A stretch of 63,989 bases of DNA, counting the filler. It is 7 parts of 7 records of this genome, joined end to end, with 100 filler letters (N's around TTAATTAATTAA, not from the genome) between each part and the next. Parts side by side here need not be neighbours in the genome. Positions count along the whole stretch, not along the records: positions 14,297 to 22,765 come from SRR31147125_10821; 6 more parts are not named here. The stretch is one strand, 5' to 3'. Position 1 is the first letter of the stretch, and the number at the start of each line of letters is the position of its first letter. The translations under genes and the position numbers were made by a program. The notes beneath the pieces were generated by a model. The model was not told where the DNA came from. It searched no databases and saw only the letters and a program-made list of their open reading frames with translations. Positions 6,976 through 58,827 of the stretch are shown here, piece by piece.

Positions 6976-7075
6976 NNNNNNNNNNNNNNNNNNNNNNNNN
7001 NNNNNNNNNNNNNNNNNNNTTAATTAATTAANNNNNNNNNNNNNNNNNNNNNNNNNNNNNNNNNNNNNNNNNNNN
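6976..7075. other. Artificial contig linker
   Basis: N-run, TTAATTAATTAA (stops in all six frames), N-run. Confidence 0.97.
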
Positions 7076-14196: not shown

Positions 14197-14296
14197 NNNN
14201 NNNNNNNNNNNNNNNNNNNNNNNNNNNNNNNNNNNNNNNNTTAATTAATTAANNNNNNNNNNNNNNNNNNNNNNNNNNNNNNNNNNNNNNNNNNNN
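14197..14296. other. Artificial contig linker
   Basis: N-run/TTAATTAATTAA/N-run. Confidence 0.97.
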
Positions 14297-14717
14297 AAAA
14301 AGATTCACCTCCAAATCAACAATCATTATCGATACGCCTATTGCCAAAGTATGGAATGCTCTTGTCAATCCTAAAATAGCAAAGAAATATTTCATGGGTG
14401 CAGAAGTTATCACGGATTGGAAAGTGGGAAGCCCTATTTTATTCAGGGGTGAATTTAATGACAATAAGTATGAAGAAAAAGGAATACTCTTAAAGGTAGA
14501 GCCAAACGTCCAACTTCAATATTCTCATTGGAGTCATTTTGATGGATTACCAGATGCGCCAGAGAATTATCGCACTTGGACTTTTAGTTTATCTAAAAAA
14601 GATAATGGGATTCTTCTTTCTGTTTCTGAAGATAATATTCCGACTGAAAAACAACGAAACCGCTCTGATGAATTTTGGACAGAGGTTCTCGCAGCTATTA
14701 AAAAAATTTTAGATTAA
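14297..14717 (+). CDS. SRPBCC/AHSA1-like protein (5' truncated)
   Basis: STIIIDTPIAKVWNALVNP..AKKYFMGAEVITDWKVGSPI...LQYSHWS. Confidence 0.85.
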
Positions 14718-14729
14718 AAGGAGAGAACA

Positions 14730-15323
14730 ATGTATAAATTACCTCAAGGAATACGAATTCCACGTGATGAAGAGTATCCAAATGATTGTAATGTTGAAGC
14801 TATCAATAGCAATAGACTTAATGCGAATATTGAAGAAGGATTCACTCTACAGTTTGTGGCAGATCAGAATTTCTCTTATTATGCAGAGATAAATGCTGAT
14901 GAAGATAAGCTTTGGGAAATGTTCTGTACAATGGTAGATGGATTAGTAGAAGAACCAGCTTATTTGATACTAGGATTCAAAGATGAAGACCCTTGGTTGA
15001 GTAATTTTGTAGGTAAGAAAAAGCTAATTGATGTAATTGAGAGATATCATTTTGAGTTCACTAATGACGGTTACTTGGAAGTGGGTATTGCATCTAATAC
15101 CGAAGGTAAGTTATGCGAGGTATACTTAGCAAGCTATAAGTATTTTAAAATATGGGGGGCTGATGTGGATAGTTTTAAATCGATTATGAATCGGTTCGGA
15201 ATCTCAGAAGACAATACACTTGGCTTTATCGATGAATTTCCAGTAGTTTCCGAAGCGCTTGATAGAGCGAGATATAAGCATGCCACTGAAATAATTGATG
15301 AAATAAAGCTGGAATTCGTCTAA
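14730..15323 (+). CDS. Hypothetical protein
   Basis: 197 aa ORF with RBS AGGAG. No family recognised. Confidence 0.7.
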   Translation: MYKLPQGIRIPRDEEYPNDCNVEAINSNRLNANIEEGFTLQFVADQNFSYYAEINADEDKLWEMFCTMVDGLVEEPAYLILGFKDEDPWLSNFVGKKKLIDVIERYHFEFTNDGYLEVGIASNTEGKLCEVYLASYKYFKIWGADVDSFKSIMNRFGISEDNTLGFIDEFPVVSEALDRARYKHATEIIDEIKLEFV

Positions 15324-15340
15324 TGAGGTCGGCAAGAACG

Positions 15341-15408
15341 TCACATAACACTGAACTTACAACATGGACAATAATTCGGAACTATGTTCACGGCACGTTA
15401 GATGAAAT
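15341..15408 (+). repeat. attC-like site
   Basis: TCACATAAC at 15341, internal TGAAC/GTTCA and AACATGG/CTATGTT inverted arms, and GTTAGATGAAAT at 15397. Confidence 0.65.
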
Positions 15409-15467
15409 AGTAAACCTAGTATAGGATATCAAAGTTGGAATAATAACGGCAAAGGAGATAGAAGAAT

Positions 15468-16019
15468 ATGATTAAAGGACATAATGTTTATCTAAGACAA
15501 CCAATAATTGAAGATGCGAATTTATGGTATCAATGGCTTAATGATTATGATATAGTTCTGCCTTTAGGTGATGAAGTTTATGGGAAAATAACCATACAAA
15601 GTATAGAAAAACAAATACAAGAGTATTCTAGTGGTGATTACTATATGTTTACTATTTTAACTAACGATGATAAAGCAATTGGAAGATGTATTCTATTTGG
15701 AATTGATCGAGTAAGCGGTAGAGGTATGGTTGGAATTTTTTTAGGAGATAAAAGTGAATGGGGAAAAGGATATGCTAAAGAATCTTTGGAATTATTAATT
15801 GAATATAGTTTTAGAATTCAAAATTTACATAGTATTATGTTAGGAGTATTTGAATTTAATCATAGAGCTAGAGAACTTTATGAGAAGATTGGCTTTAAAG
15901 AGATAGGAAAAAGGCGTGATGCAAGAAAAATTAATGGAAAGTATGTTGATGTTATTCTAATGGACTTACTAGAGGATGAATATAAGAATAAATACTTAGA
16001 TTTTAACTATTTATCGTAA
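15468..16019 (+). CDS. GNAT N-acetyltransferase (RimJ/RimL type)
   Basis: WGKGYAKE motif A and N.RARELYEKIGF. Confidence 0.9.
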   Translation: MIKGHNVYLRQPIIEDANLWYQWLNDYDIVLPLGDEVYGKITIQSIEKQIQEYSSGDYYMFTILTNDDKAIGRCILFGIDRVSGRGMVGIFLGDKSEWGKGYAKESLELLIEYSFRIQNLHSIMLGVFEFNHRARELYEKIGFKEIGKRRDARKINGKYVDVILMDLLEDEYKNKYLDFNYLS

Positions 16020-16050
16020 TTAATTGGAGAGCTTATGGTTTTCTAAGAGT

Positions 16051-16102
16051 GTTGCCAACATCATACAATCCAAGACATCGTCAATTCGCGGAACGTTATC
16101 TT
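16051..16102 (+). repeat. attC-like site
   Basis: GTTGCCAAC...ACATCGTCAATTCGCGGAAC-GTTATCTT. Confidence 0.55.
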
Positions 16103-16141
16103 ATATTCAAATTCAAGCTTAAAGGTGGAGATCAATAAAAC

Positions 16142-16915
16142 ATGTTTAAAAACTTAAAAATAATTTTTTTACTGATTTTTATTATCAATTCATTTGGATG
16201 TGAAAAGGGAAATTCAAAACATATTAATTTAGAAACACATTTTAAAAACCTAAATGGATGCTTCATACTATTTAATGAAAATGAGAAAAAATATTTAGTT
16301 TATAATGAAAAAAGAATTGATAAACGTTTTAATCCTTGTTCAACATTTAAAATACCTCTTTCTTTAATTGGATTAGAAACGGATGTTTTGGAGGGTGAAA
16401 ATCATGTTTATAAATGGAATCATGTAAATTACCCTTATGAATCTTGGAATCAAAATCATACTTTGAATACAGCTATTAAAAATTCTGTAGAGTGGTATTA
16501 TCAAAAAATGGCAAGTAATATTGAAAAAAAGAATATGAAAACTTATGTGGAAAAAATTAATTATGGTAATAACGATGTTTCGGGAGAAATCTTTAAATTC
16601 TGGCATACTAGTTTAAAAATTAGTGCAAGAGAAGAAGTTGAATTTTTAAAAAAACTGTATAACGATAAATTACCATTTTCTAAAACAAATATAAATATTG
16701 TTAAAAAAATTATTATTCTTGAGAAAACTGATAAATATCAATTATCTGGAAAAACTGGAACAAGCGGTTATGGATTAGGATGGTTTGTGGGTGTTATAGA
16801 GACTGATAATAATAAATATTTCTTTGCTCTAAATATTGATGGTAAAAAAGAAGTAACAGGAAATAATGCAAAAGAAATTACAAAAAACATATTAACAGAG
16901 TTAAATTTAATGTAA
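16142..16915 (+). CDS. Class D (OXA-like) beta-lactamase / penicillin-binding lipoprotein
   Basis: PCSTFK, NSVEWYY, YGN, FW..SLKISA and KTG motifs, with a lipobox-like SFG-C. Confidence 0.85.
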   Translation: MFKNLKIIFLLIFIINSFGCEKGNSKHINLETHFKNLNGCFILFNENEKKYLVYNEKRIDKRFNPCSTFKIPLSLIGLETDVLEGENHVYKWNHVNYPYESWNQNHTLNTAIKNSVEWYYQKMASNIEKKNMKTYVEKINYGNNDVSGEIFKFWHTSLKISAREEVEFLKKLYNDKLPFSKTNINIVKKIIILEKTDKYQLSGKTGTSGYGLGWFVGVIETDNNKYFFALNIDGKKEVTGNNAKEITKNILTELNLM

Positions 16916-16920
16916 AACAG

Positions 16921-16964
16921 AAGATAACATGATGACAAGAAACTTGAAAACCGCACGGTATCTA
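16921..16964 (+). repeat. Degenerate attC-like site
   Basis: AAGATAAC, the exact complement of GTTATCTT at 16095, followed by CCGCAC-GGTATCT. Confidence 0.5.
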
Positions 16965-17008
16965 TGTCATTAATCAACATCAATATGTCAGAATTCATTT
17001 TATAAGGG

Positions 17009-17668
17009 GTGAAAAATAATTAGAATACTTATTTTATTTATCATTATTTTAGCTTTTAATATTCAAGCTTTTGGAAATGAGGAGAATCTATTGGAGAAAA
17101 AATTTTGGAATTGGTTTAAAAAAATGAAAATAAGATTTTTAATTTTGAAAAAGACAAGGAGAATATTTTTGATGAAATTAGTTTTGAGTTAAGTAAAATT
17201 GATGAAAACTTAACTTTTGAGTTTAGTTATATTAAAAACAATAAAAGAGAATTTGTAATAAGTGCTGGAGGAATTATAAGCTCTTTTCCTTATGTAGAAA
17301 AATTATATAATAATGCACCTAAAATGAAGAGATGGAAAATAATTAAGTTTAGACCTAGAAGAAAAGATCTTAATACTATCGATTTTGCTGATAGGATAAT
17401 TAAACCCGATGATGTTAACTATTTATTATTTTTTGACGAGTATAATAATAAAATTGGAGTTAGGCTATTTTTTGATGGTTTTAGCGTAGAAGAACGAGAT
17501 ATCTATGCTCAATTTGGGTATTTATTTTTGGATGAAATAGTCGGCGAATATGATGTTGAAACTAAAATAGGGTGTATTTATTTTGAATCAACAACTTCAA
17601 AATTTTATAAACATTCTAAACCAATTCATAAAATGAGAAAAGAATTTGATAATTACTTTAACAATTAG
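17009..17668 (+). CDS. Hypothetical exported protein (FWNWF family), frameshifted in A-runs
   Basis: Reconstructed as a signal peptide, then KFWNWFKKNENKIFNFE...LTFEFS...REFVISAGGI..FPYVEKL, joining ORF 17324-17668. Confidence 0.6.
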
Positions 17669-17849
17669 TATAATGTAGGTCAAATAAAATAAAGCCTATA
17701 ACAAACAACAGATTTTATAAAAAAACTGCATTTGTCTGTAAATCCGATTGATGAAGATGAAATTACCGAAGATGTTGCTGAGCTTTCAAATAGAACTTAT
17801 TGGATTAGGAAGCCTGATGAAAGGGAATCTAAGATTGATTTAGATAAGA

Positions 17850-18075
17850 TGATTATGCATTAAGAATTATTGATTTACTAAGTATTAATGGGGTTGGAGT
17901 AAAGTATGCAAAGATGCTATATGACATAGGAATAAAATGTATTAATGATTATAATGAAACATGTTCTGAAGATATACTAAATGGAATAAGTCAACTGAAT
18001 AAAAATCATAATATATCAAGAGCAACCTTAGGTATAACAGACATAGATTATTGTAGAAGATTTACGAGAAATTAG
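17850..18075 (+). pseudogene. DUF4332/helix-hairpin-helix-like gene remnant
   Basis: Start-less frame RIIDLLSINGVGVKYAKMLYDIGI...LGITDIDYCRRF. Confidence 0.45.
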
Positions 18076-18190
18076 ATTGCGATATTAGTTAATAAAACAT
18101 TAACTAGAAAAAAAGAAGATTCAGGTATTATGATAGGGGGGCGTTGGAATTTGTATAAATGTTTAGACTGGTGAGAAATGTGCATGGCGC

Positions 18191-18224
18191 CTCGGGAGTC
18201 ATAGGAACATTAGGTGAAAGTTTT
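18191..18224 (+). repeat. attC-like right arm
   Basis: CTCGGGAGTCATAGGAAC-ATTAGGTGAAAGTTTT, complementary to 18803-18818. Confidence 0.55.
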
Positions 18225-18241
18225 GTTTAGGAGAGATACTA

Positions 18242-18817
18242 ATGAGAAAATGGGCGGAAATTGAGTATTTATTAGAAGGCAATACAACTCAGAAGAAGGC
18301 ATACAAAGCCATAAAGGAATTAAAAATTCTTGAAATTTTAAATGAATATAATCCTATTTTGGTAGGAACAATACCGATAGAAATTGATATATTAGGAAGT
18401 GATTTAGATATTATCTGCGAAGTATATGATTTTAAAAGCTTTAAACCATTTGTATCAGAGAACTTTGGTATGTGCAAGAATTATATTTTTAAAGAAAAAC
18501 GTGAAAATGGAAAAAATATTGCTGTATTTAATTTTATTTTTATGGAATTTGAATTTGAGATATATGCTAAATCAGCTCCTACAATAACATTTAATGGATA
18601 TCAGCATATGCTGATAGAAGATAGAATTCTTGGCTTATTAGGAGATGGGTTTCGTTATGAACTTATAAAATTGAAAAAGAGTGGCTTAAAGACAGAGCCG
18701 TCATTTGCAAAATTATTGGGATTGGAAGGTGATTCTTACAAGGAATTGTTAAAGTTAATAGATTATTCTGATCAAGAAATTATTAATTTGTATCAGAACA
18801 TAAAAACTTTCACATAA
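18242..18817 (+). CDS. DUF4269 domain protein
   Basis: YL..GN..QKKAY, PILVGTIPIEIDI.GSDLDIIC, HMLIE.R and GLKTEP.FA.LLGL.GD motifs. Confidence 0.85.
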   Translation: MRKWAEIEYLLEGNTTQKKAYKAIKELKILEILNEYNPILVGTIPIEIDILGSDLDIICEVYDFKSFKPFVSENFGMCKNYIFKEKRENGKNIAVFNFIFMEFEFEIYAKSAPTITFNGYQHMLIEDRILGLLGDGFRYELIKLKKSGLKTEPSFAKLLGLEGDSYKELLKLIDYSDQEIINLYQNIKTFT

Positions 18818-18833
18818 CACTCCAGTTAGCTAT
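18803..18833 (+). repeat. Collapsed attC-like site
   Basis: AAAACTTTCACATAAC (contains the stop codon), 6 nt, then GTTAGCT. Confidence 0.5.
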
Positions 18834-18887
18834 AATAATTACTCGGTTTCAATAATTAGTAAATATAAATTGAAAGGATGTTTTATA

Positions 18888-19553
18888 ATGAATGTAATAT
18901 TTGATGCAGGCGGTGTCCTGTTTTACATAGCAGAATTTAGAAATGATATTTTTAGAAGAGTGTTGACTTCTATTGGATATTCGAATGAACTCATCGAAGA
19001 AGGATTAAAAGGAGTAAAGCAGTTTGATGAAGATTATTTTTCATCAAATCAGCTAGTATCTTGGGATGATGAGAAGAAATGGCTTCAAGCTAGGGCAAAT
19101 TGTATTGCCAAAATTATTGATAGTAGCAACCAAGTTTTAGCTGATAAGTTGTTTATGTTAGCTTTCGATTCATTTCAATATAAGCTTTATGATGAGACAA
19201 GAGAAACTTTGGATAGAATGAAGACAAATCACAACTTATATATACTATCGAATGCGACAGCTAGTTTAGATTGGGCATTTGATTATCTAGATTTAAGACG
19301 GTATTTCGAAAGCATTGTAATTTCTTCCTATGTTGAAGTTAATAAACCTGATAAGAGAATATACGAATATACACTTGAACTCATTGGAGATAATGTGGAG
19401 AACTGTGTATTTGTTGATGACCGAATTGAGAATGTTGAGGCTGGTTTAAATTGTGGCATAAAATCTTTTCATCTCGATAGGAAGTCTGGAATGTCATTAA
19501 GGGACTTTGAGGATTATGTAAGTTCTTTGGCAAATCAATTGGAGTATAAATAA
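18888..19553 (+). CDS. HAD family hydrolase
   Basis: IFDAGGVL, LSN, KPD and FVDD motifs. Confidence 0.9.
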   Translation: MNVIFDAGGVLFYIAEFRNDIFRRVLTSIGYSNELIEEGLKGVKQFDEDYFSSNQLVSWDDEKKWLQARANCIAKIIDSSNQVLADKLFMLAFDSFQYKLYDETRETLDRMKTNHNLYILSNATASLDWAFDYLDLRRYFESIVISSYVEVNKPDKRIYEYTLELIGDNVENCVFVDDRIENVEAGLNCGIKSFHLDRKSGMSLRDFEDYVSSLANQLEYK

Positions 19554-19558
19554 GGCAC

Positions 19559-19587
19559 TAGCGCGAATCACGGGAACGCCATAGGTT
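19559..19587 (+). repeat. Degenerate attC-like right arm
   Basis: TAGCGCGAATCACGGGAAC-GCCATAGG resembles the motifs at 16075, 18191 and 22123. Confidence 0.45.
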
Positions 19588-19640
19588 AATGAATAAATTT
19601 GATATAGTTGGAAATCAACATACTGTAGAAAGGTAGGCAA

Positions 19641-20126
19641 ATGAATTATACAATACGAAAGTTAAAACCAAGTGAATCAAAAAAATATCGCGAAATACGA
19701 CTAGAAGCATTAAGAGAATATCCTGAATATTTTGGCTCGAATTATAACAAGCAAGCCAAAATGGAGAAATTGTATTTTGAAAGAATTGTCGAAGATAATT
19801 CTCCCAGAGGAATAATGGTAGGAGCTTTTACAAATGATGAACTCATAGGAATTTGTGGCGTGACTTTTGAAACCAAACTAATTCCAGAAGCTGGTGAGCT
19901 CATACAGATGTATGTGAAGAGAAACCATCAAGGAAATAAAATTGCCCAAAAGCTAGTAAAGAAAATCTTTGAAGAGGTAAAACAACGAAAAAATATAAGA
20001 ATCTTAGTGTTAGGAGTTAAGACAAGTAATGTTTCTGCTATAAAAACATATTATAACTGTGGATTTAAACTTAATAGGGAAATCGAGTATGAAGAAGGAA
20101 CACAATTCATGACCTTGTTAATATAG
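19641..20126 (+). CDS. GNAT N-acetyltransferase
   Basis: YREIRLEAL..YP..F, MYV...HQG.KIA and N..AIKTY..CGF motifs. Confidence 0.88.
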   Translation: MNYTIRKLKPSESKKYREIRLEALREYPEYFGSNYNKQAKMEKLYFERIVEDNSPRGIMVGAFTNDELIGICGVTFETKLIPEAGELIQMYVKRNHQGNKIAQKLVKKIFEEVKQRKNIRILVLGVKTSNVSAIKTYYNCGFKLNREIEYEEGTQFMTLLI

Positions 20127-20174
20127 GAGTTTGATAATTTTTATAAATCCCTAATTTTTTAAAATAAATAATAT

Positions 20175-20205
20175 ACTTAACAACATATTACCTTAGTTAT
20201 GTGCC
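20175..20205 (+). repeat. Collapsed attC-like site
   Basis: ACTTAAC (RYYYAAC), 14 nt, then GTTATGTGCC. Confidence 0.35.
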
Positions 20206-20561
20206 ACGAATATTTCATTTATGTCTTGTTTTAAAACTTTTTGTTTAAGGATATCAAATCATTTAAAAAAGATTAATTTACTATTGTTAGTATCCGTGCT
20301 ACTATACAGAGTAGTACATATTCAAGTTAACTTTTTTTCCATTCAAACTTTTCAAATCTTATAACTATTTAATTTTATTATATCAGAGTAAAGTCAGGCC
20401 TATTTGTATATCTTAGTTCGATTTTATTGATTTAGTATATTGATTTTATTTGCTTTTACAAGTAAAAATTAAAATCAATTAAAACTATATACATTAATAA
20501 TTTTTTAGTGTATTTGTTAAAAAAATATCTTTAAAAAATAAATAAATCAAAGGAAATTAAA

Positions 20562-21524
20562 ATGAAAATTGAAATTGTGACAACTAAGAACGAGAAACTT
20601 AAAGAAACAGGTTTTGGTACAATAAAAGCATGCCAAGAAATTTTGAAATCATTACAAAAAAATTCTATAAAAAATATTGTCAATATAAGTGTTTGTAACG
20701 ACGAAGCTTCTTTAAATAGCATCGTAAATAGAAAACCTGATTTAGTTATATTAGCAGTTAAATATATTTTAATCGATGGTGAAGAGATTTGGTTAACTGA
20801 TTTCTTTTCAAAAAAAGAAATCAGATACACTGGATCTGAAAGAAATGTATTAGAGTTTGATTCTGATAAAATAGCAGCTAAAAATTTAATGAAGGATAAT
20901 GGTATTAAAACTGCTGATTTCTTTATTGCAAGTCCGACAGAATATTTAGATGATGAAGATTTTACTATAAATTATCCTCTTTTCTTAAAACCAGTAAGTG
21001 CAGCAAATGGAAATGGTGTTGATGAATTTTCTTTTGTTGAAGATTTTCCATCATTCAAAAATAAAGTTAACGAACTATATAACGCATACAATTCCCCGGC
21101 GTTAGTTGAAGCATATCTTGGTGGGCGAGAATTTACTGTGTCTATTATAGAAAAAACTAATCGTGATTTAATTGTATCACCTATAGAAATCATTCCTCCA
21201 CAATGTGAAAACGGAATAAAAATACTGGGAGGAAAAGTAAAAAAAGAAAATAGTGAAGAACTAAAAGAAATTACTGATTTAATTATAAAAAATAACGTTA
21301 AAAAAATTGCAAGAGATGCTTTTTGCGCTTTAGGAGTTAAAGGATTTGGACGAATTGATATAAAAATGGATGATGATGGGAATTATCATTTTATTGAAGC
21401 AAATTTAGTTCCAGGTATGACAAAAGGTTCTAGTTATTTCCCAAAAGCATGTGAAATAGCAAGTCAAATCAATTATGACGAATTAGTTAGTTTAATCTTT
21501 GAGGAATTTCCTAATAGAAATTAA
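20562..21524 (+). CDS. D-Ala-D-Ala ligase-like ATP-grasp protein
   Basis: DK..AK, PLFLKP, GREFTV, GFGRIDI and FIEANLVPG motifs. Confidence 0.8.
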   Translation: MKIEIVTTKNEKLKETGFGTIKACQEILKSLQKNSIKNIVNISVCNDEASLNSIVNRKPDLVILAVKYILIDGEEIWLTDFFSKKEIRYTGSERNVLEFDSDKIAAKNLMKDNGIKTADFFIASPTEYLDDEDFTINYPLFLKPVSAANGNGVDEFSFVEDFPSFKNKVNELYNAYNSPALVEAYLGGREFTVSIIEKTNRDLIVSPIEIIPPQCENGIKILGGKVKKENSEELKEITDLIIKNNVKKIARDAFCALGVKGFGRIDIKMDDDGNYHFIEANLVPGMTKGSSYFPKACEIASQINYDELVSLIFEEFPNRN

Positions 21525-21558
21525 GTGAAATCTTTAAACATATATTAGTAAACTTTTA

Positions 21559-21600
21559 ACCTCTTTAAAATGGAATTTATTTCCATTTTGAAGAGGGGTT
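21559..21600 (+). terminator. Intrinsic terminator-like hairpin
   Basis: CCTCTTTAAAATGGAA / TTCCATTTTGAAGAGG inverted repeat after the Ddl-like gene. Confidence 0.6.
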
Positions 21601-21722
21601 ATTTGTAGAGTCATGCTATTATTCAAGAGAGGATTTCGAAATAAGGTTTGAGTCTATCTCAAAACTGTTTTGGAATGCAATAAAATCATAGAACTGTGAT
21701 AACAATGAATTGGAGGTAAGAA

Positions 21723-22070
21723 ATGAGTAAAGTAAAACCATTAATAGATTTTGATCTATTGAGCAAAGTAGATATACGTGTTGGAGAAATATTAAAAGTA
21801 GAAGACATAAAGAAGTCAGATAAAATGTTTAAAATGCCAGTGGACTTTGGAACGTTTGAAAGATGTATTCTGGTAGGAATGAAAAAGGAAAAAGAACATC
21901 CGGCTGAAGTTGTTGGAAAACAAGCTCTATTTGTTGTAAATCTCGCTCCTAAAACTATGTTTGGCGAAGTTTCCGAAGGGATGTTGTTTGATATCGGTTA
22001 CGAAGATGGAATAACTCCTGTGTTAACTCTCCCAAAAAAACCAGTTCCAAATGGTACAAGGGTAGGGTAA
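21723..22070 (+). CDS. tRNA-binding OB-fold protein (CsaA/Trbp111-like)
   Basis: KVDIRVGEI, VDFG, VGKQALFVVNLAPK.MFG..SEGMLFD and VPNGTR motifs. Confidence 0.88.
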   Translation: MSKVKPLIDFDLLSKVDIRVGEILKVEDIKKSDKMFKMPVDFGTFERCILVGMKKEKEHPAEVVGKQALFVVNLAPKTMFGEVSEGMLFDIGYEDGITPVLTLPKKPVPNGTRVG

Positions 22071-22120
22071 ATTATCTCGGAACATTTATTATAGATAGTA
22101 AATAAAATCTCAAAGTGGGA

Positions 22121-22151
22121 ACCAGCGTGAGTCACCGCAACGTTGTCTAAT
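22121..22151 (+). repeat. attC-like right arm
   Basis: ACCAGCGTGAGTCACCGCAAC-GTTGTCTAAT. Confidence 0.5.
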
Positions 22152-22237
22152 CCAAGTCACAACTTCAAACCTCCTCTCAATAATTTATATAGTATAATTC
22201 TATATATAGTTTAAAGAGTTAGATTTGAGGAAATAAT

Positions 22238-22765
22238 ATGAAATATATCTTTATATTCGTAGCTCTATTTATACAAGCTACTGCTACACAAGTGCTTGCA
22301 AACAATTCCAATGATAAAAAAATTACTATATGAATTTAATGAAATTAAAGAGATTAACTCGTGGCTAATTGTAAACGATGGTGTAATGGGTGGACTGTCA
22401 CAAAGTATGATGTTTTTAACAAATCAAAATACAGCTATTTTTAATGGTAGCATCTCTCTAAAAAATAACGGTGGCTTTTCTTCTGTTAGAACTGCTTCAA
22501 ACACTTATAATCTTGAGGGAGTTGATGGACTCTTAAGCCGAGTAAAAGGTGATGGGAAAGCATATCAATTTCGACTAAGAAATAGTAATCGTTTCGATGG
22601 GGTTTCATATAGATACGAGTTTACCACAGAAGCAAAAACTGGATAACTGTGAAACTTCCATTTACTCAATTTGTCGCAGTATATCGTGGTTTCATTCTTA
22701 GAAATCAACAGGCAATAATCGCCGAAGAAATCAAACAACTGGGGATTCTCTTTACAAATAAAAAA
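22238..22765 (+). CDS. CIA30/NDUFAF1-like protein (frameshifted, 3' truncated)
   Basis: W.IVNDGVMGGLS, SLKNNGGFSSVR and VKGDGK.YQFRL motifs, preceded by a signal-like N-terminus. Confidence 0.8.
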
Positions 22766-22865
22766 NNNNNNNNNNNNNNNNNNNNNNNNNNNNNNNNNNN
22801 NNNNNNNNNTTAATTAATTAANNNNNNNNNNNNNNNNNNNNNNNNNNNNNNNNNNNNNNNNNNNN
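22766..22865. other. Artificial contig linker
   Basis: N-run/TTAATTAATTAA/N-run. Confidence 0.97.
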
Positions 22866-36246: not shown

Positions 36247-37350
36247 ATGAGAAAACTGTTCCTTGCACTAGTAATCACATCCATGTTAATATTTACAGTA
36301 TCTGAATCTTATGCTGTGAGTGAATCTGCGGCTCTGTTTTTGCTAATTGCACCGAACGCCCGCGCCGCTGGTATGGGTGAAGCTTTTGTAGCTGTGGCAG
36401 ATGATGCATCCGCCGTTTTTTGGAATCCAGCTGGTCTGGCATTTCAAAAAGGTCGGGAAATCACTCTGACACACGCAAACTGGTTACCAGATTTTGCTGA
36501 TGACTTGTTTTATGACTTTGGAACCTACATCCAATCTATCGAAGGAATTGGTACAGTTGGTTTAAATGTCACATATTTAAATATGGGTAAACAATTTTAT
36601 ACCGGCGAAGACAGCCCTGAAGTCCTGGGTGAATTTTCGAGCTATGAATTTTCCGTTTCCGGAACATATGGAACTCTCCTGAGTGAGAATTGGGGAATCG
36701 GCGTTGGCCTGCGTTATATTCGATCAAACCTGGCTGGTTCCAATATTCAGGTTGGGGCACAACAAGGCGATGGAAAAGCAAACGCATTCTCCTTTGATTT
36801 GTCCACATTATACAAAGTCCCGTTTATACCAAAACTCAGTCTGGGACTTAATCTCTCCAACATGGGCCCTAAAATTACTTACGTAGATGCAGCTCAGGCA
36901 GATCCTTTACCAACAAACCTTAAAGTCGGATTTGCTTATAAACTCGTTGACTCAAAGTATAACAGGCTGACTCTTGTTGGTGACCTGAACAAATTAATGG
37001 TAAAAAGAAATGCTGATGGCACATCAGATGATTTTTACAAAGCACTCTTTACTTCACCGTGGACCATCAAAGAAACAGAAACTCTCAATACAGGTGGAGA
37101 AGATGAAGAGGTTGTAAAAGAAAATACGATATTTAATGGTATTTTGAGCGGTGGCTTTGAGTATTGGTACAGTGATTTAATTGCTTTGCGTGCCGGTTAC
37201 TATTGGGACGAGCCTGGTAAAGTTAAATTTGTATCATTTGGTGCTGGCATCCAATATCATGTCTATCGCTTTGATTTTGCGTATGTCAACGCTGACGAGG
37301 GACATCCATTAGCAGGAACAATGCGCTTCTCGTTGACCCTGGGTATATAA
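36247..37350 (+). CDS. PorV/PorQ family outer-membrane beta-barrel (T9SS-type)
   Basis: FLLIAPNARAAGMGEA, FWNPAGL, NMGPKITY..DPLPTNL, EYWY..ALRAGY, and a C-terminal RFSL. Confidence 0.85.
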   Translation: MRKLFLALVITSMLIFTVSESYAVSESAALFLLIAPNARAAGMGEAFVAVADDASAVFWNPAGLAFQKGREITLTHANWLPDFADDLFYDFGTYIQSIEGIGTVGLNVTYLNMGKQFYTGEDSPEVLGEFSSYEFSVSGTYGTLLSENWGIGVGLRYIRSNLAGSNIQVGAQQGDGKANAFSFDLSTLYKVPFIPKLSLGLNLSNMGPKITYVDAAQADPLPTNLKVGFAYKLVDSKYNRLTLVGDLNKLMVKRNADGTSDDFYKALFTSPWTIKETETLNTGGEDEEVVKENTIFNGILSGGFEYWYSDLIALRAGYYWDEPGKVKFVSFGAGIQYHVYRFDFAYVNADEGHPLAGTMRFSLTLGI

Positions 37351-37371
37351 CACATTTGTCTTATCCCCTTT

Positions 37372-37422
37372 AAAAGGCAAGGGTTATAACTGAAATAACA
37401 GTTGTATCCTTTGCCTTTTTTT
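37372..37422 (+). terminator. Long terminator hairpin
   Basis: AAAAGGCAAGGGTTATAACTG / CAGTTGTATCCTTTGCCTTTTTTT. Confidence 0.7.
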
Positions 37423-37478
37423 GCTATAATAGTTCTATTTTAAATAAAAGGAAAAGTGCTTAATAACTGGATCTACTG

Positions 37479-40400
37479 ATGAAAAAATATCTGTACGTGC
37501 TTTCTGGTTTTGTTTTAATGCTGTCCTTTCCTGCTTTCGCCAAAACCTCTTCACTCACAAAATCACCAATTTATCCTAAAAAGACCTTTACCCACGTTAC
37601 AACGGTCGATCCTTTGAATGTCAGGGCAAATTACTTTAACCCAACCTTAGCTGCAACAAAGAGTGAAACTGACACAATTCGTGTGCTGGCTCTTAGGGTA
37701 GAATTTGAATCAGATAACCTGGCAACCACGACTGGTGATGGACGTTTTAACAAAAGTGAGACAAGTGACTTTTTAATTGACAGACCGCCACACAACAAAA
37801 GCTACTTTGAAAATCAACTGTTGGCTTTAAAAAATTATTTTAAGCGTATTTCCAAAGGTCAGCTTATTCTTGATTCATCTGTTTTTCCGCTGGGAGAAAA
37901 TGATGCCTACCAGCTGCCTCAAAATATCGTTTATTACAGTGGGCAGGGCGATGAAGAACTGCAAAAGAAGGGATGGGCTGAATTACTCAGGGATGCAATT
38001 AATGCTGCAATGAATGATGAAGATCCTGGTTTTTCGCAATACGATGTACTTGTTGTCTTTCATGCCGGCGTCGGCTCGGACTTTGCCTTTGATTTCGATC
38101 CCACTCCATTCGATATACAATCCGCGTTTATTGATTTTGAAACACTACGGGAAACATTAGCTGAAAATGATGCTTCTTATCCAGGCATACCTGCGGGACC
38201 GGATTTTTATATCAAAGAAGGTATCATTCTACCTGAAACCCAGAATCAGGAAGATCAAGACCTTGCCATGCTGGGCACAATGACATTACTCATGGGCAGC
38301 CAACTGGGAATGCCGAATCTATATGATACCGAATCAGGAAACGCGGGAATCGGCCGTTGGGGTTTAATGGATCAGGGATCCTTTAATTTTCAAGGTCTCA
38401 TTTCAGCGGAGCCGGATGCCTGGACCAAGGTATTTATGGGTTGGGAAGATCCTGTTCTGGTGACCTCTGGTGAAAATCTTGCTATAGGCATCAATCAAAG
38501 CATGTCACCCCATATCTACAAAATCCCAATTAGTTCACATGAATATTTTCTGATAGAAAATCGTCAAACTGACTGGAATGGAGATGGCATCACCATTGGC
38601 CGTGATGAGAATGGCAAACGAGCTGAATTTGATTCTACAGGTACCATAGCCGTGGAGGAAGGAATCGGTGTTATCACCTCCATTGACGAATATGACTTTG
38701 GTATACCTGGCTCGGGAATATTAATATGGCATATCGATGAGCAGGTTATCGCGGATAATCTGCAAACCAATACGATAAATAACAATCGTGATCACAGAGG
38801 TGTCGATCTCGTTGAATGCGATGGCGCCCAGGATTTGGGATATAGTTACAATTTATTCTCTGCCGGCTTTGGCACAGAATCAGGTGATTATTTTGATCCT
38901 TATTGGCGCGGTAATGAGTCACACAAAATTGTTAACGATACAGACGTTGTTGAACTATCACCTTTTTCGATCCCGAATAGCAACGCACATAATGGCGCAA
39001 TAACACATATCCGGTTTTATAACTTTAGCGGCCGGGATTCTGTTATGACTTTTTCTGTCGCGTCTGATTTGGCACAGGATGGATTTCCTCAATATGCCGG
39101 CACAGGATTCAGCTCCGGGGCACTGTTGAGTATAAATCAAAACGAAACAAACGGATCCGCCATCTTTGCAGCTTCTAAAAACGGTCGCATTCTGGCCTGG
39201 AAGGGTGATGGCTCACGTCTGATAGAGAATAATGAAAAAGTGACTATTCAGGATGCAACTGGAAAAGACATAACGTACGATCTGGCACTTTTTGCAACAA
39301 CAACAGATTCCATCTATTTACCCCTTACGAGTGAAGACATTAACAGTGACGGAAGCATTGATCTGATCGCATTGGATAATGGCGGAACGCTCTATATTTG
39401 GACAACCAAAGACGCAGATGCAGACGGACGAGCCGACCTGGTGCAGGAATTAGATCTTGGCGCAAGACCAACGGCCGGTCCCATGATCCTTTCTCCTGAT
39501 TATACATCTCTGCAATCCTCGAGCATCATCGTTGGCCTGGAGAATGGATCTGTGCAGGTTTATCGCTGGAACACAAACAAGTTGGAACTATTTACGAACA
39601 TTGAAACCAACGCCGGAGTCATAACAGGGCTTGCCGGGATACCGCAGGACTATGCAGACTTGGTAGCAACTACAAATAATAATATTTTTGCTATTGCCGC
39701 TGCCGGTACAATATTGTGGCAAACCGGTATTTCGCCTGCAGGATTGACAACTCAGCCTCTAGTTGCACATATTGATAACTATCAGGGTCCTCACATTGTA
39801 GTGATTTCAAATGGTGGCGATATTCTGACTTTTTCTGATGATGGACATCTGCTTGAGAACTATCATGTTACGGCACCATTTGAATCTCTAAGCGCACCCG
39901 GTTGGGGCGACATCGATACGGATGGTTTACCGGAAATATTGCTTTCTTTAGGCAATAGTTTTAGTGCATTTGAGCTTACAGGTGTGCCCACATCAAATTT
40001 TCCTGTGCCGTTTGCCCTGCCGGAAGACCTAAATCCATCCCAGACAGGTGCTCCGCTTCTTTTTAAAAGTGATGAAATGACAAATCCAACGGTCTTTGTA
40101 CCCACTCCTGATGGTTTGATCAGATCATATAATCTAAACGCTGTTTCTTTAAGCGGTTTTCCATTAACAACAAGCAAACAGATTACAACAACTCCTATCC
40201 TAAGTAACATAGACGCAGACAACCATGTGGAACTAACTGTGCTCTCTGAGGATGGATTTCTGTATGCCTGGGATTTACCCTATTCCTCTGATAATATAAA
40301 CGACTATTGGACCCATTGGGGTGGCCGGATCACCAGAACATTTGATTATAGCGGTAGTGTTGCACAGGTAACAAGTACTGGCACACTTTTACCAACAAGC

Positions 40401-40670
40401 AAAGTATTTTGCTATCCTAATCCGACAAATGGCAATAATACGAATATTCGATACACATTGACAAGTTTGGCTGATCGCGTAACCATACGTATTTATGATC
40501 TTGCCGGTGAATTTGTCGAAGAATTACAACATGCCGGCATGGATGCGGGCGATCATGAAACAGTGTGGGACATTTCTGCTATCGAAAGCGGTGTTTATAT
40601 CGCAAGAGTAGAAGCTGATAATGGTTCAGATAGTAACGTTGAATTTATAAAGATTGCAGTGGTTAAATGA
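37479..40670 (+). CDS. Secreted M6 (immune inhibitor A)-like protein with FG-GAP-like repeats and T9SS-type C-terminal domain
   Basis: Signal peptide; VFHAG, LGMPNLYD, WGLMDQGS, EYFLIENR and GILIWHID motifs; DINSDG/DIDTDG repeats; C-terminal YPNP...IYDLAG...SGVYIARV. Confidence 0.8.
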   Translation: MKKYLYVLSGFVLMLSFPAFAKTSSLTKSPIYPKKTFTHVTTVDPLNVRANYFNPTLAATKSETDTIRVLALRVEFESDNLATTTGDGRFNKSETSDFLIDRPPHNKSYFENQLLALKNYFKRISKGQLILDSSVFPLGENDAYQLPQNIVYYSGQGDEELQKKGWAELLRDAINAAMNDEDPGFSQYDVLVVFHAGVGSDFAFDFDPTPFDIQSAFIDFETLRETLAENDASYPGIPAGPDFYIKEGIILPETQNQEDQDLAMLGTMTLLMGSQLGMPNLYDTESGNAGIGRWGLMDQGSFNFQGLISAEPDAWTKVFMGWEDPVLVTSGENLAIGINQSMSPHIYKIPISSHEYFLIENRQTDWNGDGITIGRDENGKRAEFDSTGTIAVEEGIGVITSIDEYDFGIPGSGILIWHIDEQVIADNLQTNTINNNRDHRGVDLVECDGAQDLGYSYNLFSAGFGTESGDYFDPYWRGNESHKIVNDTDVVELSPFSIPNSNAHNGAITHIRFYNFSGRDSVMTFSVASDLAQDGFPQYAGTGFSSGALLSINQNETNGSAIFAASKNGRILAWKGDGSRLIENNEKVTIQDATGKDITYDLALFATTTDSIYLPLTSEDINSDGSIDLIALDNGGTLYIWTTKDADADGRADLVQELDLGARPTAGPMILSPDYTSLQSSSIIVGLENGSVQVYRWNTNKLELFTNIETNAGVITGLAGIPQDYADLVATTNNNIFAIAAAGTILWQTGISPAGLTTQPLVAHIDNYQGPHIVVISNGGDILTFSDDGHLLENYHVTAPFESLSAPGWGDIDTDGLPEILLSLGNSFSAFELTGVPTSNFPVPFALPEDLNPSQTGAPLLFKSDEMTNPTVFVPTPDGLIRSYNLNAVSLSGFPLTTSKQITTTPILSNIDADNHVELTVLSEDGFLYAWDLPYSSDNINDYWTHWGGRITRTFDYSGSVAQVTSTGTLLPTSKVFCYPNPTNGNNTNIRYTLTSLADRVTIRIYDLAGEFVEELQHAGMDAGDHETVWDISAIESGVYIARVEADNGSDSNVEFIKIAVVK

Positions 40671-40716: not shown

Positions 40717-40816
40717 NNNNNNNNNNNNNNNNNNNNNNNNNNNNNNNNNNNNNNNNNNNNTTAATTAATTAANNNNNNNNNNNNNNNNNNNNNNNNNNNN
40801 NNNNNNNNNNNNNNNN
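40717..40816. other. Artificial contig linker
   Basis: N-run/TTAATTAATTAA/N-run. Confidence 0.97.
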
Positions 40817-47818: not shown

Positions 47819-47918
47819 NNNNNNNNNNNNNNNNNNNNNNNNNNNNNNNNNNNNNNNNNNNNTTAATTAATTAANNNNNNNNNNNNNNNNNNNNNNNNNN
47901 NNNNNNNNNNNNNNNNNN
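47819..47918. other. Artificial contig linker
   Basis: N-run/TTAATTAATTAA/N-run. Confidence 0.97.
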
Positions 47919-58727: not shown

Positions 58728-58827
58728 NNNNNNNNNNNNNNNNNNNNNNNNNNNNNNNNNNNNNNNNNNNNTTAATTAATTAANNNNNNNNNNNNNNNNN
58801 NNNNNNNNNNNNNNNNNNNNNNNNNNN
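58728..58827. other. Artificial contig linker
   Basis: N-run/TTAATTAATTAA/N-run. Confidence 0.97.

Follow-up and report, generated by a model that had tools for sequence, protein, structure and literature searches.

Gene content of the contig

The window analysed here, i.e., the whole stretch of 63,989 nt, consists of seven contigs joined via artificial N...TTAATTAATTAA...N linkers (6976-7075, 14197-14296, 22766-22865, 40717-40816, 47819-47918, and 58728-58827); any feature apparently crossing a linker is an artefact, and adjacent contigs may differ in organism. Our subject is one of these parts, a complete metagenome contig of 8,469 bp (14297..22765; GC 0.295) with both terminal genes truncated at the contig ends, and the possibility that it is an array of gene cassettes, at least some of which would end in a short, conserved intergenic box. 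The sequence-only reading had described about 11 functionally unrelated short genes on a single strand, most with a strong Shine-Dalgarno sequence. This description held: the contig carries 12 genes or pseudogenes of unrelated families, all on the + strand, with AGGAG/GGAGG-type ribosome-binding sites upstream of gene starts, and G+C content at third codon positions (GC3) is heterogeneous among adjacent genes (0.14-0.31).

The first gene encodes an AHSA1/SRPBCC-domain protein truncated at its 5' end (14298..14717) and is followed after 12 nt by a gene for a 197-aa protein (14730..15323) with no family match and zero relatives in the metagenome scan. Next come a GNAT acetyltransferase gene (15468..16019) and a gene for a class D beta-lactamase-family lipoprotein (16142..16915) with an STFK motif, which scores 239 bits against an NCBIfam class D cut-off of 250 and whose best homologue is 58% identical. 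An unknown gene (17013..17668) lies in two frames, with a frameshift in an A run and no canonical start, and is either a pseudogene or the product of a sequencing error; the two short open frames downstream of it (17702..18075), with weak domain hints (Adenyl_transf, E=0.009; HHH_5, E=5e-4), are probable gene fragments. These are followed by a DUF4269 gene (18242..18817), a HAD-IA hydrolase gene (18888..19553) whose subfamily is rare, with 6 cluster representatives at E<=1e-30, and a second GNAT gene (19641..20126), for which 11 homologues in all were found. The Ddl-like ATP-grasp gene (20562..21524) falls well under the Ddl family cut-offs; it has a very A+T-rich non-coding stretch of 435 nt (20127-20561) upstream and a strong terminator downstream, and the unit looks self-expressed, in contrast to its neighbours. 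The last two genes encode a tRNA-binding-domain protein of CsaA / MetG C-terminal type (21723..22070) and a CIA30-domain protein with a signal peptide (22238..22765), the latter with two frame changes at A runs and cut off by the contig end. All three frame changes of the broken genes (17100-17140, 22320-22335, and 22600-22650) fall at A runs.

The layout is cassette-like in that unrelated genes with heterogeneous GC3 share one strand and a single terminator-like hairpin. This hairpin (21560..21596, + strand), a 16-pair stem followed by a T run, is the sole stable one on the gene strand, i.e., one per 8.5 kb, and promoter-like sites are no commoner than in shuffles. None of 9 contig proteins had an exact match in the protein collection. 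Named relatives of the cargo are mainly from Clostridia, while the second GNAT has a single named relative, in a spirochaete metagenome-assembled genome, and an SRPBCC gene of a Chondrinema litorale plasmid (L223 6001-6320) matches the SRPBCC gene of the contig (14370-14689) at 72% DNA identity across 320 nt. Judged by such similarities, the relatives of the cargo point to Clostridia, Bacteroidota, and one spirochaete.

The intergenic box

Three intergenic sites on the + strand, ending at 18208, 19577, and 22141, have in common a G+C-rich element of ~19-26 nt that ends in AAC, with a consensus of about GCG.GA[AG]TCA[CT].G[GC]AAC. These strong boxes lie at 18183..18208 (..GGCGCCTCGGGAGTCATAGGAAC, then ATTAGGT), at 19554..19577 (GGCACTAGCGCGAATCACGGGAAC, starting 1 nt past the HAD stop codon, then GCCATAGG), and at 22117..22141 (GGGAACCAGCGTGAGTCACCGCAAC, then GTTGTCT). 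When a 16-mer seed from 18193, 19562, or 22126 was searched against the whole contig at 12 or more of 16 matching bases, it retrieved exactly the other two. Shuffled contigs yielded a mean of 0.06-0.17 such seed matches, and two matches were reached in 0, 0, and 2 of 300 shuffles. No copy of the box occurs on the - strand or in the six other contigs of the 64-kb window.

A weight matrix built from the three strong boxes placed the site ending at 16094 at the top among all other positions, with 10.6 bits. Since this lies under the shuffle 95th percentile of 13.5 bits (genuine copies score about 30), we grade the box at 16074..16094 (GACATCGTCAATTCGCGGAAC, then GTTATCT; + strand) as borderline; it resembles the C-terminal tail of a homologue of the DUF4269 protein, considered below. 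The matrix scan of the contig did not retrieve sites 15385 and 16951, and the weak box-like stretch at 15376..15396 on the + strand (..AATTCGGAAC TATGTTCACGGCAC|GTTAGAT) is by sequence indistinguishable from chance. Thus, of the right-arm motif that the sequence-only reading had assigned to six sites, the copies ending at 18208, 19577, and 22141 stood up to the seed and shuffle test, that at 16094 is borderline, and those at 15385 and 16951 were lost.

The similarity among boxes ends exactly at AAC. The next seven bases differ (ATTAGGT, GCCATAG, and GTTGTCT at the strong sites; GTTATCT at the borderline one); GTT follows the box at 16094 and is stated for two of the three strong sites, the third having GCC. 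An attC carries conserved AAC (R'') and GTT (R') triplets at its two ends; in the contig the conserved AAC directly precedes GTT within a single arm, and no opposite arm supplies it. Boxes are found 24-75 nt past a stop codon, on the gene strand, with 33-97 nt to the next start, and the box at 22117..22141 contains a partial dyad, GTGA-G-TCAC (22128-22136).

A simple account of these features would be an ordinary accessory cluster of an A+T-rich anaerobe, in which the box is a lineage-specific motif without a role in recombination (for example one bound by a protein, or a signal for mRNA processing or 3'-end formation) and the integron features are coincidental. The partial dyad is typical of sites for dimeric DNA-binding proteins, boxes number only three or four, and the Chondrinema plasmid carries a comparable mixture without boxes: its neighbourhood holds many small GNAT, HAD, VOC, NTF2-type, and SRPBCC genes on both strands. 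The absence of hairpins, of a recombinase, and of any related array, described below, would also suit this account. We consider it a serious rival, though less likely than a cassette array, in view of the sharp stop of conservation at AAC with GTT-type sequence next, the constant placement of the boxes 24-75 nt past a stop on the gene strand, and the 33-97 nt to the next start, a poor fit for an operator or promoter. The heterogeneous GC3, the lack of synteny, a unique pair of complementary 7-mers around the beta-lactamase unit, and the possible presence of the box on other contigs, next to homologues of two of the genes, argue in the same direction. Were the box a regulatory motif and no more, the finding would be ordinary.

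Two further identities for the box were tried and rejected. As the -35 element of an extracytoplasmic function (ECF) sigma factor (GGAAC), it misfits, since the consensus spacings to a -10 element do not suit the sites and a start codon comes just 33 nt after one of the boxes. An origin from a tRNA found no backing either, as ARAGORN finds no tRNA in the contig and the box misfits when read against a T-arm.

The spacers also have a vocabulary of their own. Of 10 spacers, 5 contain ATAACA (1.2 expected) and 5 contain CAACAT (0.35 expected), and none contains the reverse complement of either word; the vocabulary is strand-specific. An earlier proposal that a TAAC-type core follows the stop codons gains some support from this excess as far as the strand-specific words go, and none as regards the inverted-repeat fold that the proposal entailed. 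The sequences taken for an inverse core past stop codons (GTCACATAAC, TTCACATAAC) are similar to the box itself and run in its own direction, without inversion. At one unit the relation between start and end is exact: AGATAAC (16922..16928, + strand), present in a single copy in the contig and situated 7 nt past the beta-lactamase stop, is the reverse complement (7 of 7) of GTTATCT at 16095-16101, where the beta-lactamase unit starts. The GNAT and DUF4269 units show start/end complementarity of 5 of 7 bases each, read by eye, and the units are few in all. In an integron cassette, the first bases, which derive from the upstream R', are complementary to the R'' of the cassette's own attC. Among oral integron cassettes the match was exact in 51 of 58 (PMC4909258, in excerpt), and the beta-lactamase unit shows this relation between its start and the sequence past its stop.

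Could the motif and the junction logic nevertheless be patterns picked by eye in a small A+T-rich contig? Failure of 2 of the 6 listed sites and of most left-arm readings under testing would be in keeping with this, as would the scattered single matches, and nothing more, from a pattern scan of the genome collection. Against it stand the three-way similarity of the boxes, which was not reached in shuffles, their consistent strand and intergenic placement, and the strand-specific spacer words, and we regard chance as very improbable.

Folding of the spacers against attC controls

What defines an attC site is imperfect palindromy: when single-stranded, the site folds into an R box, an unpaired spacer, and an L box, with a variable terminal structure (PMC4889954, PMC4909258; both in excerpt). 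For nine spacers of the contig folded as bottom-strand DNA, energies lay between -2.3 and -4.4 kcal/mol and z-scores close to zero, and the minimum free energy z-scores of 10 whole spacers ran from +1.5 to -0.95, in both cases with the exception of the terminator spacer. Pairing of the right arm with the upstream 70 nt amounted to -4.2 to -8.1 kcal/mol at 7 sites, compared to a background from 1,193 positions with a mean of -6.3 and a standard deviation of 1.6 kcal/mol. Positive controls treated identically were clear: three attC of a class 1 integron on plasmid pTROUS1, belonging to its IMP-63, aac(6')-Ib, and OXA-19 cassettes, reached -20.3 to -23.5 kcal/mol with fold z-scores of -2.3 to -5.2, and 25 Treponema-type sites from two chromosomal arrays (loci L219 and L222; GC 0.30-0.31) had a median of -17.9 kcal/mol (range -24.0 to -9.7). 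Since the Treponema-type arrays are equally A+T-rich, low GC cannot explain the folding failure. By this test the contig sites are not attC, and the inverted-repeat logic of R'' and R' cores that had been read into them did not hold up as a fold, as no spacer forms a hairpin above chance. We also considered a partner arm downstream of the box, i.e., in mirror orientation, and rejected it: whole-spacer folds are insignificant on both sides, and there is no reverse-complement copy of the box.

The weakest of the Treponema-type controls were four sites with a conserved right arm and a different left half. These 4 of the 25 sites in L219 and L222 keep the right arm (CAGGTTAAGCG..GTTAG), and their left half contains ..GCCAACTTTGCC..GGCAAAG..; they are a second site type or a hybrid inside working arrays.

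IntegronFinder defines a cluster of attC sites lacking an integron-integrase (CALIN) by at least two attC, called by covariance model, within 4 kb and on one strand. We predict that it would make no attC calls on this contig. A search of the contig for known RNA families in Rfam, which has no attC covariance model, returned nothing credible.

The contig and CALINs, as the latter are described by Cury et al. (2016; PMC4889954, in excerpt), have much in common: unrelated, mostly promoterless genes on one strand with no integrase nearby, a conserved element after genes that ends at an AAC|GTT-type junction, and, in one unit of the contig, a start complementary to a 7-mer past the stop. A+T-rich composition is a further likeness, as seen in the spirochaete arrays that we examined. 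The differences are that attC need a foldable R-UCS-L palindrome (PMC4889954, in excerpt), whereas the contig sites do not fold and have no left arm, and that the contig has just three or four sites for its ~11 genes.

It is conceivable that hairpin attC once present here lost their left arms by deletion and A+T-biased mutation after loss of the integrase, leaving a decayed classical array of CALIN type. The AAC|GTT junction, the RYYYAAC-like words past stops, and the broken genes are what such decay might leave behind, and the 4 of 25 Treponema-type sites with a conserved right arm and a different left half demonstrate half-sites in real integrons. In T. phagedenis the integrase was lost and the sites were retained (PMC3607928, in excerpt). 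This history is nevertheless quite unlikely, and sites that were never hairpins are favoured over decayed attC, because random decay would not be expected to remove every left arm and leave three right arms in good order, and because the better-preserved site that may follow the DUF4269 homologue on another contig (below) leaves no room for a left arm (~30 nt before the box) nor, on our own reading of the back-translation, complementarity to one. Arm pairing at background level at 7 of 7 sites is a further point against it.

Comparison with Treponema-type integrons yielded likeness in composition and cargo, and none in the sites. GC of the arrays is about 0.30, compared to 0.295 in the contig, and hydrolases and acetyltransferases are found in both; a Ddl-type cassette has been reported from a Treponema integron as well (bioRxiv 10.1101/2020.05.09.085589, in excerpt). 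Treponema integron sites measure 63-68 bp, often with the stop codon inside or next to the first box (PMC3607928, in excerpt). In the arrays used here they are near-identical 65-nt palindromes (..CTAACACCCGCTTCAACCTG...CAGGTTAAGCGAATGTTAGA..), with which the contig box has no sequence in common, and 0 of 12 contig proteins have a homologue at L219 or L222. Arrays adjacent to spirochaete integrases are often far more A+T-rich than their surroundings, with 3-kb GC minima of 0.26-0.35 in many of 20 loci (L230-L249).

Possible recurrence beside homologues and possible mechanism

The closest homologue of the DUF4269 protein, P0001 (80% identical), is encoded on a 2,182-bp contig of another assembly and reads 23 residues past the stop of the contig protein (..NKTFSYIHSDFVNCGNAIGNSNN), with a tail that includes ..DFVNCGNAIG... 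In frame 1, the box at 19554 translates as ..ANHGNAIG and the site at 16074 as DIVNSRNVI, and these two sites were the two best contig matches of the degenerate back-translated P0001 tail. The residues after the junction in P0001 (AIG) are those found after the box ending at 19577, which follows the HAD gene. In our contig, the short spacer after the DUF4269 gene (18818..18887, + strand) resembles a shortened, A+T-enriched remnant of the box predicted after the P0001 homologue, which fits the earlier description of the sites as partly eroded. The simplest reading would be a junction difference of one unit: the relative would have the order DUF4269-box-next unit, and our contig DUF4269-eroded box-HAD-box-next unit.

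A second case is provided by P0246, which is 57% identical to the second GNAT and encoded on a 2,500-bp contig. Its N terminus is extended by 32 aa that include ..RRDTGTL.. ~52 nt before the true start, and frame 2 of five box sites gives HGTL, RGTL, IGTL, TGTP, and TATL; this is only suggestive of an extension that encodes a box. Relatives of the HAD protein had tails uninformative on recurrence. Taken together, the protein tails make it appear that the box adjoins homologues of two genes on other contigs.

Conservation of gene order around the homologues is lacking. A DUF4269 homologue (at 56% identity or less) occurs at 75 metagenome loci, and 72 of them have no other gene in common with the contig, so that the syntenic arrangement that would have counted against an array was not encountered. 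At none of these 75 loci was a box found at one mismatch or less, with the exception of L176, where a single one-mismatch match lies ~8 kb from the DUF4269 gene. Searches for the box in genomes were likewise fruitless. A pattern scan of the genome collection returned 120 loci (80 listed) from a broad scatter of phyla; when rescanned, each locus showed one match and no more, as chance would give. None of 401 sampled Clostridia genomes had more than two exact 16-mer box matches, and none of 151 sampled Spirochaetia genomes more than four scattered 14-mer matches; these searches were of samples and do not prove absence. Of the 151 sampled Spirochaetia genomes, 44 exceed the integron integrase family cut-off, and the best box score at 20 spirochaete integrase loci was 14.4 bits, compared to about 30 for real copies. 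A search of 401 sampled Spirochaetia for the second GNAT was negative, viral contigs held no relatives of the GNAT or DUF4269 alignments, and in phage and plasmid DNA the only match was that of the SRPBCC gene to the Chondrinema plasmid, which has no box.

We consider it most likely, with moderate confidence, that the contig is a cassette array assembled by recombination. This preference is based on its organisation, the AAC boundary with GTT-type sequence beyond it, the one exact complementarity, and the apparent recurrence beside homologues. Several results weigh against it. There are three firm boxes and one borderline box for ~11 genes, the remaining spacers being indistinguishable from chance, and units would therefore comprise 2-3 genes each. 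Recurrence elsewhere is read from two protein tails, not from DNA; the P0001 tail scored 40 compared to 36 at the best random place, the alignments of the P0246 extension were at random level (24 and 22 vs. 24 and 22), and the neighbour predicted for P0001, a GNAT homologue on its 2,182-bp contig, was absent among the GNAT homologues found. No collection scanned, whether of genomes, metagenome loci, or integrase loci, held clustered box matches or a related array. The contig encodes no recombinase, and a Pfam scan of 33 open reading frames (180 aa or longer) from the six remaining contigs gave no PF00589 match; since this is one short contig, cut inside genes at both ends, the absence of an integrase from it carries little weight. 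Finally, the frame changes could be homopolymer sequencing errors, not true pseudogenes.

Next to its array, a complete integron has an attI and encodes an IntI tyrosine recombinase marked by an extra domain (TIGR02249 / intI_Cterm), and folded attC sites are what defines integrons. The contig is at most an integron-like or decayed array. A narrower version of the recombination-built array, namely an integrase-less, partly decayed integron-like array whose sites were never hairpins, is one that we hold tentatively and at somewhat less than even confidence. Under such a scheme, promoterless unrelated genes would be stacked on one strand, with at least some units ending in a conserved box after whose AAC a variable GTT-type sequence follows. 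The units would be joined by a site-specific recombinase that cleaves the AAC|GTT junction or a position beside it and whose substrate is probably double-stranded, and several junctions would later have eroded, leaving 2-3-gene units and several broken genes. Because there is no complementary left arm, the sites would not be recombinable as folded single strands in the manner of IntI. What the data show is the box family with its sharp 3' boundary, its strand and intergenic position, the failure to fold, and the absence of synteny; recombination at the junction, movement of units, and the type of enzyme are inferred.

In 1997, Stokes et al., in their description of 59-base elements, reportedly described simple sites, i.e., two 7-bp boxes around a short spacer, as double-stranded targets of tyrosine recombinases. 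The contig box can be read as a 7-bp element (GA[AG]TCAC) plus a 6-bp spacer ending in AAC, followed by GTTRRRY, and in comparison with attC it resembles the right-hand simple site alone. In contrast to complete simple sites and attI, the contig would have one simple site without a second, no attI-type direct repeats, and no recombinase. Use of a double-stranded simple site in place of a folded attC would call for a recombinase different from classical IntI. More ambitiously, the contig may represent an undescribed capture system of an uncultured A+T-rich anaerobe, in which cassettes are stacked at AAC|GTT via a double-stranded simple-site box and the cargo includes a divergent class D beta-lactamase-family gene; in this full form we think the proposal unlikely. 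The system may be a poorly described one outside the classic hosts, as the sequence-only reading supposed.

Integrons are reportedly almost absent from Gram-positive-type lineages. If the cassette-array interpretation were true, genes would be stacked by a second mechanism, or integron remnants would persist in a form invisible to structure-based finders, and structure-based surveys would undercount cassette-borne genes, here a beta-lactamase-family gene. The case is small and decayed, and would add to the signs that structure-based integron finders overlook a class of cassette arrays.

As regards the rest of the window, GC ranges from 0.295 to 0.53 across the contigs. Considering this range and the differing gene content, the contigs derive from different organisms; sigma-54 and heterodisulfide-reductase-type genes occur in some of them. 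Genes for PorV and for a 1,063-aa protein that has a C-terminal sorting domain for type IX secretion (36247-40670) assign the contig at 22866-40716 (GC 0.40) to a Bacteroidota/FCB-type organism.

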